Below are positions 1,794 through 13,409 of a stretch of DNA of 13,409 nt, in pieces. Origin of the DNA: Candidatus Hermodarchaeota archaeon (GTDB lineage: Archaea > Asgardarchaeota > Hermodarchaeia > Hermodarchaeales > Hermodarchaeaceae). Positions within the stretch are counted from its first letter, which is position 1; each line of letters starts with the position of its first letter. The stretch spans positions 1 to 13,409 of the forward strand of contig JAEOTO010000026.1 of assembly GCA_016839805.1 (NCBI GenBank). The letters run 5' to 3'. Both the position numbers and the translations under genes were made by a program. Below the pieces are notes generated by a model. That model ran no database searches. It saw only the letters and a list, made by a program, of their open reading frames with translations, and had not been told where the DNA came from.

Positions 1794-2762
1794 GTGATTA
1801 AAAAAATGAGAACAACACTCCTTTCACGGGCAACACTCGGGCTCACAGTCATAGCCATCAGTCTTCTGATGGTATCCAGTATACCTGTGATGGCTGCGAC
1901 CAACGGTCAGGGCATTCAATACCAATATGATTCACCAATGAAACAAGTAACTCTGACAACTCCTGCCATCGTCGTTCGGGTTTCCGCTGGTGAGAATGTA
2001 CCCCACTTCATGTTCTGGGACCCCACATTCATTGATCCAAATACCCGATTGACCTATCATGTGCAATTCTTTCAACTTATCGAATTCAACGACACCAATG
2101 ACGATGGAACCTATACCAACGGCACCGACCATGTAGTCGCCCCAATCCTGGGACTAGGACGCGTCATGTGGGCCTTTAGTGGCTTCGAAACCGAACAAGA
2201 CGGTCCCACCGTAACCGCCGTCCACTTTAACTATACTCTCGCAGATGTTCAAGGTCCAGGGTATCCAGACCTGTATATGGAATTACGCTGTCACATCAAC
2301 ACGACGAATAACAATCAACTCAAATTCGACATTGTAATTTCTGGTTGGCCTTGGACACACGATGACACCTTTCTTGCACTTCGCTGGGATCTGATGGTGC
2401 AAAGTCCCGGCACACACTCCTATCGCCACGCCTATCAACATCGCTACGAAAACAACACCTACTCCTTTGAAGGGGCGTTCTTCCAGTACAAACGCTCAGC
2501 AAACGTTGGCAATGATACGACCCAAGTAACAAGCAACTACGAAGATCATCCGGAAAAAACCGTGTTCTACCTCGTTTATCCCAACTTCGGCAATGAACTC
2601 CTGGTTCACGATCCAATTGTTGGGTTAGACGGGTCCTTAATCCCACCAAACAACATTCTCCCCCTTCTCATCGTAATTGGGGCAGGCGCACTAGCCTGTG
2701 TTGTTATCGCCGCAACCATCTGGATTCGACGGCGAAATGTCACACCTATTCCTCCCGAATAG
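1794..2762 (+). CDS. Secreted beta-rich glycoprotein with a C-terminal membrane anchor (type I membrane protein), function unknown; start may be ATG 1806
   Basis: Signal peptide (RATLGLTVIAISLLMVSSIPVMA/A), several N-x-T sequons (NDT, NGT, NYT, NTT, NNT), C-terminal TM ILPLLIVIGAGALACVVIAATIWI followed by RRR. Confidence 0.85.
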   Translation: MIKKMRTTLLSRATLGLTVIAISLLMVSSIPVMAATNGQGIQYQYDSPMKQVTLTTPAIVVRVSAGENVPHFMFWDPTFIDPNTRLTYHVQFFQLIEFNDTNDDGTYTNGTDHVVAPILGLGRVMWAFSGFETEQDGPTVTAVHFNYTLADVQGPGYPDLYMELRCHINTTNNNQLKFDIVISGWPWTHDDTFLALRWDLMVQSPGTHSYRHAYQHRYENNTYSFEGAFFQYKRSANVGNDTTQVTSNYEDHPEKTVFYLVYPNFGNELLVHDPIVGLDGSLIPPNNILPLLIVIGAGALACVVIAATIWIRRRNVTPIPPE

Positions 2763-6372: not shown

Positions 6373-7074
6373 TCATTTTTGATGCTGGAACCGTTGCGTG
6401 GGCAGATCAAGGGCAATTTCGAGACTGTGAATAAGCATGCCTACAATAGTAGTGGTTGGTAAGGGTTCGGGATCAAAGCTCATCTGGTGGTCAACGAGTT
6501 TAGTTAAAGTCGCCACAGGGGTTCCATGAGGAAAGCCGCCGACGAGTACAACCGGCTTCTCTTCGGAGATAAGTTGTTCGGCGAAATGGACAGGACTGGT
6601 GGGAGTGCCACTATGAGAGAGTAGGTAAATGGTACTTGGAGAAATTCCTTGGAGATAGGTCTTCAAGGGTCCTTGATGTACTTGCATTAGGGGAGGTCCC
6701 TTAATGGGCACTCGTTGAGAAACAAGTAATTGTTCCACGAGGCCAATAAATCGGGCTATCCGACGTGGTAAGCGGGTTCCAGGGGCAATTTGAATAATCG
6801 AACCGCTATAAATGTGAATGAACACTTCTAACTGGCCCTCTCGTGCTAAGACGCTATCCAGTGCAGTTAAGATGCTGCGATGAGCAATGTCTGGTCGTCC
6901 ACGCTTCTCTGAGTCAGGAAGCGTCTGTAAAGCCTTTGAATGAAGAGCTTCATCAAGGAGAATCTGGTGGGGTGGTTTTCCTCTGAGCTTGGCACTGGTA
7001 ACGACACTGATGTCTTGCATGATTTCATCTGGTACTAATTCTAATGCCGTCTCAACAAGTCCAAGAACTAACAT
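6373..7074 (-). CDS. nep1: Nep1/Emg1 SPOUT-class SSU rRNA pseudouridine N1-methyltransferase
   Basis: ETALELVP, LLD...H, KRGRPDIAH..L.ALDS.L, RLPR...RFIGL.EQL, VGGFPHG motifs. Confidence 0.95.
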   Translation of the reverse strand: MLVLGLVETALELVPDEIMQDISVVTSAKLRGKPPHQILLDEALHSKALQTLPDSEKRGRPDIAHRSILTALDSVLAREGQLEVFIHIYSGSIIQIAPGTRLPRRIARFIGLVEQLLVSQRVPIKGPPLMQVHQGPLKTYLQGISPSTIYLLSHSGTPTSPVHFAEQLISEEKPVVLVGGFPHGTPVATLTKLVDHQMSFDPEPLPTTTIVGMLIHSLEIALDLPTQRFQHQK

Positions 7075-7124: not shown

Positions 7125-7481
7125 CTATTCGTCAATTTTGAGATATCCACGCCTTTCAAGCCAAGCGGCTTCGCCCTGGGAATAGCGCCACGTGATGTCA
7201 CCGCGTTTATCCGTTTGAAAATCCCAGGGTGCAACAAGAACTACGTCGCCTTCTCGGATCCAGGTTCGTTTTTTCATGGTTCCCCTAATTCGGCAGAGTC
7301 GTGCTTTACCATCGGCACATTTAACGCGTACCCGGTCATAACCAAGAAGTTGAACGGCAATTCCGAGAACTTCGCCTTCTCGAGGAATCCGGACGCGAAT
7401 TACTTCGCCGTCTTGGCTCGACTGACCTTTGAGTCGACGACGTGACCTGCCTGATTTTCCTTTTCGACGGGGTTTAGACAT
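7125..7481 (-). CDS. eif1a: Translation initiation factor 1A (aIF1A)
   Basis: RVRIPREGEVLG...LLG..RVRVKCADGK.RLCRIRGTMKKRTWIREGDVVLVAPWDFQ...RGDI.WRY; AGGAG SD at 7489-7493. Confidence 0.98.
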   Translation of the reverse strand: MSKPRRKGKSGRSRRRLKGQSSQDGEVIRVRIPREGEVLGIAVQLLGYDRVRVKCADGKARLCRIRGTMKKRTWIREGDVVLVAPWDFQTDKRGDITWRYSQGEAAWLERRGYLKIDE

Positions 7482-7523
7482 GGTAATACTCCTAATTTGA
7501 ATGGGCTACAACTAGAAGACGAG

Positions 7524-7536: not shown

Positions 7537-8631
7537 TCACTGACGGTGACTTGGCAGCTCATCAATCTCAACGTCGGGAAGAAGTACCAAACTATCATCC
7601 CATTCAATGGCGGAGACCATAGATCCAACCTGTAATGGTTTTGATGGATCGGGATAATCATAGATTGTGAAATCCCTCTGACTCATCAACTGGTAAACAT
7701 CGTCCTCCAAAGAAATCACTTGATAGGAATGAATTTGATCGTTGAGGGATTGGGCGTCAATTTCTGCGAGTTCTTTAGGACTGAGGTTTTGTTTTTGTCC
7801 GGATTTTAGGTTTGTAAGAGTATAACGACCATTCCGTAGACCTGTAATCATGAATGGCTGTTGCATGTACTCAATTACATCCCGAATTTCAAAGGGGGGA
7901 AATCGCAAGGCATAGGTTTCCCGCGTTAATGTCTTACCATCGCGAGTCCGCCCTGCTAATTTACTGGAGACTTTGAGGAGTAATCCAAAGTGTGTAGCCA
8001 GATTTTTAGCAAGACTTCGGCAGAACCGCCCTGAAATACATTTGATGTCAAAACCCTCGCGCTTTTCTGTGAATTTTAACGTGGATTTCGGTAAATCATG
8101 ATCGTTCAGTCGTTGAGTGATATATGCTGCAATTTGGTTCCCCTGAGCGGGTGAAAGCTTCCCTGATGCGGTTCGAACCTGAATGGTAGCTTCGAAATAG
8201 CCTCCAGCAGTCTGTTTGCATTGACCACAAAGAACTAGTGTAATAGGGAGAGTGAGTTGTTGTTTTTCTCGATAGTTCAGAGTGTGGATTGTAGCCGTTA
8301 TATCTACATCCACTTTCTTTGTTTTTGAAAGGGGGGTTCCAGAGGAATCAACAAGTTCCACTTCGAAAGTTGCAGGCTCACTAGGATCAAAGAGAGGATC
8401 AAGAAGGTCACAAACCATGTTATAAACGTGGTCAGCATCCGGAACGGATCCTTGGTGTACCCATCGACCACTAGTGTAGTAGGCGTTGCATCGCGGACAC
8501 ACTTTGGCCTCGGGAGGACGACGAAGTACAATGAGCGGATGTTGCTCAAAATAGCATTGAGCGCAAAACCCTTTCACAAAAGGTTGAGCTTTAGTCTGAT
8601 CTTTTCCACATTTTGGGCAGCTACGGGTCAT
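7537..8631 (-). CDS. nmd3: NMD3-family large-subunit biogenesis factor
   Basis: Four CxxC pairs (CPKC, CAQC, CPRC, CGQC), GGYFEATIQVR signature, C-terminal SH3/OB-like region; adjacent to DUF424 as is usual in archaea. Confidence 0.92.
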   Translation of the reverse strand: MTRSCPKCGKDQTKAQPFVKGFCAQCYFEQHPLIVLRRPPEAKVCPRCNAYYTSGRWVHQGSVPDADHVYNMVCDLLDPLFDPSEPATFEVELVDSSGTPLSKTKKVDVDITATIHTLNYREKQQLTLPITLVLCGQCKQTAGGYFEATIQVRTASGKLSPAQGNQIAAYITQRLNDHDLPKSTLKFTEKREGFDIKCISGRFCRSLAKNLATHFGLLLKVSSKLAGRTRDGKTLTRETYALRFPPFEIRDVIEYMQQPFMITGLRNGRYTLTNLKSGQKQNLSPKELAEIDAQSLNDQIHSYQVISLEDDVYQLMSQRDFTIYDYPDPSKPLQVGSMVSAIEWDDSLVLLPDVEIDELPSHRQ

Positions 8632-8972: not shown

Positions 8973-9557
8973 TTAACCCTTCAAAGGAGTACGTCCACCA
9001 CATGCACTACACACTAACATGAGAAGGCGATCTTCCCGGCGAATTTCAGTATCCGGTCGTTGGCATACAGGGCATACGACAAACTCATCGGTATATTTGG
9101 CTACAAGATCTTCTAATGCTCGTGAGGTGAATCGTCCATTGAACATGGCTTGAGCACCTTGGAGTTCTCCTGCAGTTGCTAGCTCTTGTGCAAGAAATCG
9201 GATGAGATGCTTTGGATCACGACGGAGCGTGTCGGTAATATCCTTGAAATTACGAATAATTGTCCGAGAACCCTGGATGAACGAGTCGACCTGCGGCAGT
9301 TGAAATCGAGGCTGATCAAAGACTTCCGGAGGAATTTGGTCACGTGCGCGTTTTAGAAGGGCTTCGTAATCGTCGGTGTGAGGTGTGGTTGTAGTGGTTT
9401 TTGCTTTTGCCGATTTAGGTTTGGTCTTTGCTTTAGCTTTTGCACTGGATTTGGGCTTTGCCTTCGATTTGGTCTTTGGCGCAGCTTTGGGTGCCGATTT
9501 GGCTTTCTGACTCTTGGTGGCTTTCTTTGTTGGCTTCTTGGTGGTTTTTGGTGGCAC
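8973..9557 (-). CDS. eif2b: Translation initiation factor 2 beta subunit (aIF2-beta) with a ~60-aa Lys/Ala/Pro/Thr-rich N-terminal extension
   Basis: YEALLKRA..QIP, RF.LP, G.RTIIRNF..I...LRRDPKHL..FL..ELATAG, zinc ribbon CPVC.RPDT...CSACG; GTG start with a GAGG SD. Confidence 0.96.
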   Translation of the reverse strand: MPPKTTKKPTKKATKSQKAKSAPKAAPKTKSKAKPKSSAKAKAKTKPKSAKAKTTTTTPHTDDYEALLKRARDQIPPEVFDQPRFQLPQVDSFIQGSRTIIRNFKDITDTLRRDPKHLIRFLAQELATAGELQGAQAMFNGRFTSRALEDLVAKYTDEFVVCPVCQRPDTEIRREDRLLMLVCSACGGRTPLKG

Positions 9558-10607: not shown

Positions 10608-13409
10608 TTACGTGGGAAAGTCAACGGCTTCATCAGGTTGGCTAGGGTTTGGGAATGGTGACGCATTAACAGGAATAAAGCAGCCCTCATCATGAAGTTG
10701 TTCAAGAGCATTAGCGATATCGAATTTCTTCTTGGATCCATACTTTTCTACAGCTGCCACAAAAAGCTGTGGGAGGAAGAGACGCCCCTCTTTATTCGCA
10801 AGTTTTACAGCTAAAGCGTAGATCTTCCGTGGAAAACCTCGCGAAGGCGGTTTTGCGCATTCATAGGCTAGAAGTAATTCGCCGTGAAAACTTGCTTCAA
10901 CGATTTCTGAGGCGGGATCAAACATGTCAATACGCCCGTCAAACCTCTCTAATTCTGATCCAAATCGGGTTTCAAACTGAGTCGTGAAGCTAGCCAGTGA
11001 TTCAGTAATTTCTTCACTAGGTGATGAGTCTAAAATCAGAACACTCACAATGTGGGTACCCTCACGGAGACTGAGATGTAAATCCTTGTAGTGAATGTCT
11101 CGTAGCTGCGACTCTCGGTCAACCTCCCCTGAGAGTTCGCTATAGAATGAATTGACAGCCGAAATAAATCCTGCTAGTAACGTACTAGGCATCTCGCCCC
11201 CAGCAAAATCATAGGTAAATATCGGCAACCCAGTTTTCGAATATGTAACAAAAAGAGCCCGCAAATCCATTAAGCCCATAATCCGTTGTGCCCACATCCC
11301 CCCACTCTCTTCTAACTTCCTTTGTCGGGCTAACTTACTGGGACGAACACGTTTTACATAAATTACAGACCCAATGATGATAATAAGGACGATTAAAACA
11401 AGCAATGGCCAGTAGGCTAAAAGGAGTTCAGCCCACCACGGCATATCTGTCAAGGGTAGGATCGCTTCCGATGCAATCATGAATATAGTGGCAATTTCAC
11501 AGGCACCATTGTATTCTGCTGATGCCCACAAATAGGGGTCAGTGTTCCCATTATCCCACACATAACTTGGAATTTGGACGAAAAGAAGGCCCAAGCCAAA
11601 CACATCAGTGGTAATCGCCTCTGAAGCCAAAGAGACACTTGTACCGTTCGCATATTGCACCCAGACAACAAGGTCAACATTTCCTCCCACTATGACCGAA
11701 CCATTCTCCAAGGTCAAACCAATAGTTACTGCGATTTGAGTGCCAGGATAAATAATGGTAGGAAGCTGAAGGGTCAAAATCGGTGTTAACTTAGCTAAAA
11801 CCTCAAGGGTCAAACTAATGGTTTGATTCTGATGGTTCGTCCGCTGAGCAAAAACATCCACTGCATACGAAGTCGGGGTTATTCCGGTTAAGTTCAAAAT
11901 GAGCCGGTACACACCATTGCCCTGAGACGTCAAAGGATAGGTAGTAGTTTGAAAGACTGCCCAAACGGTCGCTGAACCAACACCAAACCCCGTATTAGTA
12001 TTGATAAAGGTCACATCAAAGACAAGAGTTTCGTTTTCGTATTGAGAGGGAGTAAAATCGTTATTTTCTGGGGTAAGAGATGTGGCCCAAACAAGATGGA
12101 AGGTTTGTGTAGTGAATTGAATTACATAATTTTGAACACTAATGTTGAATGTAATTGTCCACCAACCGACTGGTGCACCCGTAGTGGAGCAGCGGACTGT
12201 ATAGGTCCCATCCAGATTATCAAGAAAACTAATTGTTGACCAGTTCCCCTGGACCACCGCACCAACGAGTCCCTGTGGGGTAAAGTCTTGGTATGTCAAC
12301 TCAATTATGAAATCAGTATCATAGACAACAGGAGCGGAGGAAAGCACCTGCACAGAAAGTTGGGAGGGGCGAATTAACACATCGACGAGATCCTGATAAA
12401 TTTGGGGTTCATATCCTGCAAGGGAAATGGTCAACGTGATATTGTAGGTGCTATCACCACCACTGGTATTCAAAATAAATTGCAAATGATAGGTTCCATC
12501 CAACAAATCAAACGTTATGAATGGGGTAAAGGGTGTCCCATTCAAAAGACACGAAACGCTGGCTCCAACAATTCCTGTCCCATCCGATTGTTTTTGATAG
12601 GTCAACGTTACATTGAAGGCTTCTCCCCCATTCACACTCGGAGGAGCACTTCCTGAAATTGTCGTTGCTTCTCCTTGCACTGTAAGTGTAACCAACAAAG
12701 TGGTATCTTGATAATAAAAACCAGGTTTTGACGCATTAACAACAAGGTTATGGGTTCCTACGCCTAGAACCGTTCCCTGCAAAAGAACCGTATAGTTTCC
12801 CCCTCCTTCTTCGGATAACACACTAAAGAAAGGACCGGGATCCGAAATATTCACTTGCGCCCCTTCGATGCCTCCCTCTCCTAACGGCGTTAACACTGAA
12901 TAATTCACTTCTAAAGTCACACTTTCAGTATAACTAATGGAAAGAGAAGTCCAGTTCGCCACTAATTGTGTTTTCGACCACAATGTAAGCGATACGGTAG
13001 TCGTGGCAGAGGCATAACCTTGTCGATCCGCTTTTACCAGACCTACATTGACACCACGACCTAATCCCATCAGCGAAGTATCGATAGAGCGTTCATAATA
13101 GCCAGATCCAACATCAAATAGGGAATATGTCGACATGCCGAAGGTGACATTGACTTCATCGGCGTTTTCGATACCTGCGATATTATACGTATCCTCGTAG
13201 TAGACGCGGATATTGACGTTATCGCCAATGAGACTTGTATAGGGACCAAGATTATCAGATACTGTCGTCGGGTAGACCAGATGTACGCTGCTGAGTCCCA
13301 CGCCGACGTGGTAGCTGTTATTCCACACGACCTCACAGCGCATTGTAACATTAGTTATCAGGTATGTATTGGGTGTGAAAGATGGAAAGGTCAGTAATCC
13401 AGCAACTGG
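10608..13409 (-). CDS. Large single-pass surface protein: Ig-like repeats + TM + cytoplasmic longin-like domain + probable winged helix; 5'-truncated by the window
   Basis: The frame stays open for 22 codons upstream of ATG 13343 (PVAGLLTFPSFTPNTYLITNVT) to the window edge. It has ~100-aa beta repeats with G.Y motifs, TM LLLAYWPLLVLIVLIIIIGSVIYV-KR, then SKTGLPIF...LLAGFISAVNSF..E...FETRF..EL..FDG....F, typical of Asgard longin-like domains. Confidence 0.85.
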   Translation of the reverse strand, partial: PVAGLLTFPSFTPNTYLITNVTMRCEVVWNNSYHVGVGLSSVHLVYPTTVSDNLGPYTSLIGDNVNIRVYYEDTYNIAGIENADEVNVTFGMSTYSLFDVGSGYYERSIDTSLMGLGRGVNVGLVKADRQGYASATTTVSLTLWSKTQLVANWTSLSISYTESVTLEVNYSVLTPLGEGGIEGAQVNISDPGPFFSVLSEEGGGNYTVLLQGTVLGVGTHNLVVNASKPGFYYQDTTLLVTLTVQGEATTISGSAPPSVNGGEAFNVTLTYQKQSDGTGIVGASVSCLLNGTPFTPFITFDLLDGTYHLQFILNTSGGDSTYNITLTISLAGYEPQIYQDLVDVLIRPSQLSVQVLSSAPVVYDTDFIIELTYQDFTPQGLVGAVVQGNWSTISFLDNLDGTYTVRCSTTGAPVGWWTITFNISVQNYVIQFTTQTFHLVWATSLTPENNDFTPSQYENETLVFDVTFINTNTGFGVGSATVWAVFQTTTYPLTSQGNGVYRLILNLTGITPTSYAVDVFAQRTNHQNQTISLTLEVLAKLTPILTLQLPTIIYPGTQIAVTIGLTLENGSVIVGGNVDLVVWVQYANGTSVSLASEAITTDVFGLGLLFVQIPSYVWDNGNTDPYLWASAEYNGACEIATIFMIASEAILPLTDMPWWAELLLAYWPLLVLIVLIIIIGSVIYVKRVRPSKLARQRKLEESGGMWAQRIMGLMDLRALFVTYSKTGLPIFTYDFAGGEMPSTLLAGFISAVNSFYSELSGEVDRESQLRDIHYKDLHLSLREGTHIVSVLILDSSPSEEITESLASFTTQFETRFGSELERFDGRIDMFDPASEIVEASFHGELLLAYECAKPPSRGFPRKIYALAVKLANKEGRLFLPQLFVAAVEKYGSKKKFDIANALEQLHDEGCFIPVNASPFPNPSQPDEAVDFPT

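Follow-up and report, generated by a model that had tools for sequence, protein, structure and literature searches.

The aIF1A protein encoded in the window, the whole 13,409-nucleotide stretch of Hermodarchaeia DNA analyzed here, begins with a long N-terminal tail rich in Lys, Arg and Gly, and on sequence comparison the similarity of this tail to the N-terminal tail (NTT) of eukaryotic eIF1A exceeds an effect of composition. We somewhat favor the reading that the protein is a functional aIF1A with a eukaryote-like P-site arm, and that this arm is the same structural element as the eukaryotic NTT, which would have been lengthened within the Asgard archaea before eukaryotes. In a review, archaeal aIF1A is described as having only a short N-terminal tail, and the two eIF1A tails are regarded as having been added in eukaryotes in connection with scanning (PMC6412873). 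A full-text literature search returned no paper describing the aIF1A tails of Asgard archaea, which is not proof of absence. The tail suggests that a part of the eukaryotic start-codon machinery may be older than eukaryotes, with independent invention being possible.

The gene is the genome's own aIF1A orthologue and not a paralogue, being single copy and placed in a row of translation and ribosome-biogenesis genes. It is the only PF01176 match in the assembly (2.3 Mb, 87% complete), and the domain match is full-length, scoring 79.2 bits against a cut-off of 30.2. The minus-strand row comprises a large ORF of 911 aa without a Pfam match, an OB-fold protein, aIF2beta, DUF424, NMD3, aIF1A, EMG1/Nep1, a RIO kinase, and a KH (Krr1/Pno1-like) protein (Table 1). 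The gaps on either side of aIF1A, 55 and 50 bp, are too small to hold a separately encoded acidic microprotein. A near-identical aIF1A locus is present in Candidatus Hermodarchaeum yapensis (91% identity), and such proteins are annotated in public databases as eIF-1A only. Translation starts at the ATG at 7481, with an in-frame stop 8 codons upstream, and there is no other ATG, GTG or TTG in the frame between that stop and Met69, which lies inside the OB fold. No other start being usable, a basic tail of 22-25 residues must be translated. The 118-residue translation begins and ends exactly as the earlier note had quoted it, and positions 7404-7481 hold codons 1-26. An alternative start site was also considered and was ruled out, because Met69 is the next possible start codon.

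Table 1. Features of the aIF1A locus in the window, with strand and supporting evidence.
Feature	Coordinates	Strand	Evidence or remark
aIF1A gene	7125..7481	-	118 codons and stop; PF01176, E 1.8e-22
Shine-Dalgarno-like AGGAG	7489..7493	-	7 nt 5' of the aIF1A ATG
aIF1A N-terminal tail, residues 1-22, Lys/Arg/Gly-rich, predicted disordered	7416..7481	-	family alignment, shuffles, pN/pS, model
aIF1A OB barrel and C-terminal helix, residues 27-114	7140..7403	-	PF01176, structure matches, model
Last four aIF1A residues after the core; no acidic C-terminal tail	7128..7139	-	ORF end, alignment
NMD3 homologue	7537..8631	-	upstream of aIF1A, 55-bp gap, same strand; PF04981, E 7.7e-39
EMG1/Nep1 methyltransferase	6373..7074	-	downstream of aIF1A, 50-bp gap, same strand; PF03587, E 1.9e-46
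aIF2beta	8973..9557	-	194 aa, GTG start; Pfam match restricted to residues 82-188
Large ORF	10608..13343	-	911 aa; no Pfam match at E <= 0.001
Large ORF	1794..2762	+	322 aa; no Pfam match at E <= 0.001

The core of the protein has the usual fold of the family, an OB barrel of five strands and then a C-terminal helix. The AlphaFold model, built with 24 homologues, contains strands within residues 38-99 and a helix at residues 102-110, with a core pLDDT of 85-92, and its best Foldseek matches are aIF1A and eIF1A chains, headed by Pyrococcus abyssi aIF1A (4MNO, TM 0.90, rmsd 0.7 Å). M. jannaschii aIF1A (1JT8) matches residues 23-114 at E 1.8e-31. Core identity to the P. abyssi (4MNO/5JB3) and M. 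jannaschii factors is 49-57%, and these likewise have no C-terminal tail; their N-terminal tails are about 14 residues shorter and do not align with that of the window protein. Trp74 occupies an invariant alignment column and is equivalent to Trp69 of human eIF1A, an invariant residue that contacts the ribosome (PMC6122471). Only 4 residues of the protein follow the conserved G-Y-L of the helical subdomain, and the earlier statement that it has no acidic C-terminal tail was correct: unlike eukaryotic eIF1A, it lacks an acidic extension that bears scanning enhancers and, at its very end, the motif that binds eIF5B. Its closest relatives in the databases come from Asgard archaea and Bathyarchaeia. 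A recent transfer of the gene from a eukaryote was ruled out, since the core is nearest to archaeal factors (112 bits to 1JT8 versus 69 to human eIF1A).

The tail is well represented in the family. An aIF1A was found in 370 of the 400 Asgard genomes searched; the Hermodarchaeia family consists of two genera, in which 14 of 18 other genomes gave an aIF1A match. All 15 family sequences examined, the window's own included, carry the basic N-terminal tail, and in the model its first 25 residues have no secondary structure (pLDDT ~45). K3, P4, R15, K18, G19, Q20 and S21 are invariant among the 15 tails, and G8, K9 and G11 are found in at least 90% of them, so that the core of the motif is kept in close relatives. 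The Arg triplet and the second Gly vary across the family, the triplet even within a genus, and in-frame indels occur. The Gly-Gly position is Ser-Gly in the window protein, Gly-Gly in the sister genus, and a single Gly in some relatives. Summed over ten pairs from five equal-length family genes, pN/pS was 0.27 for the tail versus 0.065 for the core. The tail is under constraint, which is weaker than that on the fold, and the position-specific conservation together with the pN/pS of 0.27 indicates that the constraint acts on the tail sequence and not on charge alone.

The ungapped match between the tail and the human eIF1A N-terminus, 8 of 12 residues, was reproduced on recounting, and the human sequence quoted for that comparison is identical to the one in the PDB search output. 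The tail of the sister genus is nearer to eukaryotes, being identical at 9 of 11 residues in a stretch that takes in the Gly-Gly pair. In 3000 shuffles of the tail that kept its composition, p was ~0.001 for the 8/12 identity and ~0.0007 for the Smith-Waterman local score (BLOSUM62) of 53, the best of these p-values carrying a look-elsewhere cost because many lineages were examined. About half of the family tail variants lose the statistical similarity, and several genus-level variants gave a shuffle p of 0.03-0.1. The six-frame ORFs of this genome add up to 2.0 million residues and contain only two 12-mers with 8/12 identity to the human motif, one of which is the tail. Basic N-termini are found on 19 of the 3227 ORFs of this genome, probably ribosome-associated proteins, and only 3 of the 3227 combine comparable Lys/Arg and Gly content. 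Identity to the human sequence was higher at family-conserved tail positions (6 of 9) than at variable ones (3 of 11), a hand count that is only suggestive.

Database searches with the N-terminus were less productive. The 22-residue tail alone, a short and biased query, gave no match to PDB sequences at E up to 10, and 50-residue N-terminal queries matched only e/aIF1A chains there, with marginal E values of 0.1-0.7. When a 47-column profile of the family N-terminus was compared with 1.84 billion representative sequences, the only match was an unrelated protein of 1207 aa (P0121), an apparent repeat protein that matches profile positions 21-41 in eight stretches. A word-indexed search with residues 1-40 retrieved the Hermodarchaeia family only and is uninformative on distant likeness.

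The alignment of whole factors places the tail in the register of the eukaryotic one. In HMMER alignments to eukaryotic eIF1A, residue 4 of the window protein is paired with chain residue 2, and in the sister genus residue 1 with residue 1; the alignments to the M. jannaschii and P. abyssi factors begin only at residue 19-25. With this offset of two, G8, K9, G11, R15 and K18 correspond to human G6, K7, G9, R13 and K16. Further, K9, R12, R15, R16 and K18 of the window tail align with K7, K10, R13, R14 and K16, and among these K9, R15 and K18 are conserved in the family. It is only in the closed complex that K7, the G8-G9 turn, K10, R13, R14 and K16 of yeast eIF1A contact mRNA, anticodon or rRNA, and these residues stabilize the P-in state (PMC5756025). 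The bit scores to human eIF1A were 69 for the window protein and 75 for the sister genus, compared with 60 for one short-tailed Bathyarchaeota protein, 56 for one from Thor, and 40 for one from Hodarchaeales; the Thor tails are also drawn into HMMER alignments with eukaryotic eIF1A.

The eukaryotic NTT (human EIF1AX, yeast TIF11; scanning-inhibitor element SI1) belongs to the same protein family and lies at the same protein end as the Hermodarchaeia tail, and both are disordered and rich in Lys, Arg and Gly. Their lengths are almost equal, the window tail being about 4 residues longer than the human one. The window tail holds equivalents of human G6, K7, G9, K10 (as Arg), R12-R14 and K16. The two differ in the first Gly of the G8-G9 turn, which is Ser in the window tail and Gly in the sister genus, in the beginning of the tail (Met-Ser-Lys-Pro in the window protein, Met-Pro-Lys-Asn in human eIF1A), and in the linker between the tail and the OB fold. 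The organism also lacks eIF5, eIF3 and the cap-dependent scanning partners of the eukaryotic eIF1A tails.

Across archaea, the stop-free region upstream of the fold was scored against residues 1-20 of human eIF1A, with a cut-off of 35. All of the 15 unique Hermodarchaeia N-termini scored at least 35 (median 45, maximum 53), as did 7 of 94 unique N-termini from other Asgard archaea (maximum 42) and none of 131 unique non-Asgard N-termini (maximum 31). The Asgard sample covered Hermod, Hodarchaeales (including B3_Heim), Heimdallarchaeum, the AB_125 type, Thor, Borrarchaeum, Loki, Hel, Sigyn, Wukong and Jord; the non-Asgard sample comprised 49 N-termini from Thermoproteota and 82 from Halobacteriota and allies, without DPANN, Thermoplasmatota and most Methanobacteriota. 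Among alignments of the window protein with aIF1A from 161 evenly drawn Thermoproteota genomes, nearly all start at residue 13 or later, and the few exceptions retrieved have no Lys/Gly tail of the Hermodarchaeia kind. A strict DNA pattern (Met-Pro-Lys, 1-4 residues, G-K-G-G, a basic-type codon, any residue, Arg-Arg) was run against one genome per species for 185,579 species and gave 47 matches, of which 45 were bacterial, a number within the chance range, and 2 were archaeal, both of them Hermodarchaeota aIF1A starts. Equally good matches scattered through non-Asgard archaea, which would have spoken against the earlier proposal, were thus found neither among the 131 N-termini nor with this pattern. 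The earlier note also called most archaeal tails shorter and unpatterned, which is true of the TACK archaea and Euryarchaeota sampled here and fails for Asgard archaea.

Long Lys/Gly-rich tails, on proteins that databases likewise label simply as eIF-1A, occur in several Hodarchaeales genera, the AB_125 (Kari) type, some Thor genera, Borrarchaeum, some Loki, and Hel. They frequently contain K-G-K-G runs, their sequences are mutually different, and in shuffle tests most of them have no significant likeness to the eukaryotic tail. Length varies within orders as well, Hodarchaeales having both 13-residue and 30-residue forms and the Thor genera also differing from one another. The tail pattern across Asgard archaea is a mosaic and not stepwise. 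Many database entries for Thor aIF1A (L104-L108) are 92 aa long and start at an internal Met, whereas forms of 111-115 aa carry a conserved, TTG-initiated basic tail that is missing from the 92-aa entries, which are probably start-site mis-annotations.

Hodarchaeales are the sister group of eukaryotes according to Eme et al. (2023), as cited in PMC11698992. Their aIF1A (L118, L127-L147) is strongly divergent, with 40 bits to human eIF1A and, unlike the Hermodarchaeia protein, replacement of the invariant Trp. Its N-terminal tail is less similar to the eukaryotic one, and it carries a C-terminal extension of about 20 residues with a conserved L-[DEN]-[IV]-E-I-P. Short extensions past the core that the Hermodarchaeia factor does not have were also seen in Loki (P-E-I-L-D-I-N) and Heimdall-group (I-P-E-E-F-like) aIF1A.

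By analogy with the eukaryotic factor, the following mechanism may be proposed. The aIF1A core, a standard archaeal OB barrel and helix, would be seated in the ribosomal A site, and after start-codon pairing the disordered tail would thread from the A site towards the P site, where its conserved Lys and Arg residues may clamp the codon-anticodon region as they do in eukaryotes and stabilize the P-in state. In yeast 48S complexes, the eIF1A tail fills a channel that leads from the A site to the P site. The same channel is empty in initiation complexes of P. abyssi, whose aIF1A tail falls 10 residues short of the eukaryotic length (PMC5103072). The Hermodarchaeia tail, about 14 residues longer than that of P. 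abyssi by the counting used in that structural work, is as long as the eukaryotic tail and could therefore span this distance. Because there is no acidic C-terminal tail, the protein has no counterpart of the scanning-enhancer or eIF5B-docking elements.

As to origin, archaeal aIF1A commonly has a short basic N-terminus, in which Met is followed by a small residue and then by Lys or Arg, and the tail may have arisen from it by lengthening. The tail would have become long and Lys/Gly-rich within the Asgard archaea before eukaryotes and would have changed fast since; that the version nearest to the eukaryotic consensus is found in Hermodarchaeia would be happenstance. An elongated tail across the Asgard archaea is likely, and we lean modestly towards a shared origin of the long tail in Asgard archaea and eukaryotes. 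A single early elongation is favored by the location at the same end of the same protein, the common register, the coincidence of conserved with functional positions, and the presence of long tails in most Asgard classes. Moreover, one early gain is the simpler explanation for Lys/Gly tails occurring in nearly every sampled Asgard class and in none of the sampled TACK archaea and Euryarchaeota. A full-length Asgard tail that is kept under purifying selection with the closed-complex residues suggests that scanning could be younger than the 'stop and lock' half of start-codon selection, and that the N- and C-terminal tails of eIF1A could have separate histories. The Hermodarchaeia tail is also a ready-made natural construct with which such ideas can be tested directly, both in yeast and on archaeal 30S complexes.

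The same observations on register, functional positions and distribution weigh against convergence, in which the tail would have lengthened independently in Hermodarchaeia, other Asgard lineages and the eukaryotic stem, giving the same function with no shared descent. The Hermodarchaeia and eukaryotic tails would then resemble each other through a shared need to fit one conserved channel of the decoding center. We regard this as a credible but rather unlikely alternative. Several findings fit it: the tails differ strongly between and within Asgard classes, as among Hodarchaeales and Thor genera, and the high scores are confined to Hermodarchaeia. A general tendency towards low-complexity tails also exists, since tails of variable length and low complexity are frequent on ribosomal proteins of TACK and Asgard archaea (PMC7531240) and aIF2beta of the same operon has a long Lys-rich tail. 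Taken together, the variation within orders, the position of the best match outside the closest relative of eukaryotes, the drift of the motif in the family, and the look-elsewhere cost favor convergence, or at the least heavy turnover.

The earlier note had proposed an intermediate state in the origin of eukaryotic start-codon selection, with the NTT present and the C-terminal tail absent. Part of this stands: the tail is real, conserved in the family, NTT-like beyond composition and in the same register. A simple line of descent is not supported, given the varying Arg triplet, the different tails of other Asgard archaea and the divergence of Hodarchaeales. In its strict form, Hermodarchaeia would keep a form of eIF1A in which the NTT motif had become fixed before any C-terminal tail was added, inherited unchanged from the lineage that founded eukaryotes. 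The 8/12 and 9/11 matches of the two genera, the missing C-terminal tail, and core scores that are more eukaryote-like than those of the Thor and Hodarchaeales factors agree with this. However, Hermodarchaeia are not the sister of eukaryotes, their motif drifts within the family, and the Heimdall group and Loki combine short C-terminal extensions with weaker N-terminal tails, which gives no simple order of tail acquisition. We therefore consider the strict form improbable. That the tail is a generic basic arm with non-specific affinity for RNA or the ribosome, or a drifting low-complexity stretch with no P-site role, whose likeness to the NTT comes from composition and chance, is very unlikely: the lack of a PDB match for the tail alone and the other basic N-termini of the genome fit such a reading, but the order-specific shuffle result, the constraint on individual positions and the rarity of its Lys/Arg and Gly content among the ORFs oppose it.

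A further reading can be considered. The N-terminal tail of yeast eIF1A promotes the use of near-cognate start codons. By analogy, an NTT that stabilizes the P-in state through the Gly turn and the K7, R13 and K16 contacts might have been present in Asgard archaea before scanning and might lower the stringency of start-codon selection in Hermodarchaeia, a proposal that we regard as doubtful. If it were true, the gating of start codons by eIF1A would have been invented in archaea and later reused by scanning. In a genome-wide test anchored on Shine-Dalgarno sequences, the ratio of near-cognate to other codons was 0.24 at a spacing of 5-9 versus 0.14 in controls, a difference confounded by AT-rich spacers.

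Some minor observations concern the start codons of aIF1A genes in other Asgard archaea. In a Loki-type gene from a single-contig genome of 6.0 Mb (L125:1423-1779, minus strand), no ATG, GTG or TTG lies between the upstream stop and the conserved N-terminus, and ATT occupies the Met position as the only possible start. A Hel-type gene (L112:180-539, minus strand) has ATA at the Met position and an ATG 10 codons upstream.

The aIF2beta gene of the same operon encodes a tail of its own. Its first ~58 residues form a conserved low-complexity stretch of Lys, Ala, Pro, Thr and Ser, which recalls the Lys boxes in the N-terminal tail of eukaryotic eIF2beta, and long aIF2beta forms (open frames of 167-252 aa) were found in all 16 family genomes with a match. 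Outside the Asgard archaea, aIF1A paralogues are numerous in Methanosarcina, and Methanosarcina hadiensis (G402) has four separate PF01176 matches.
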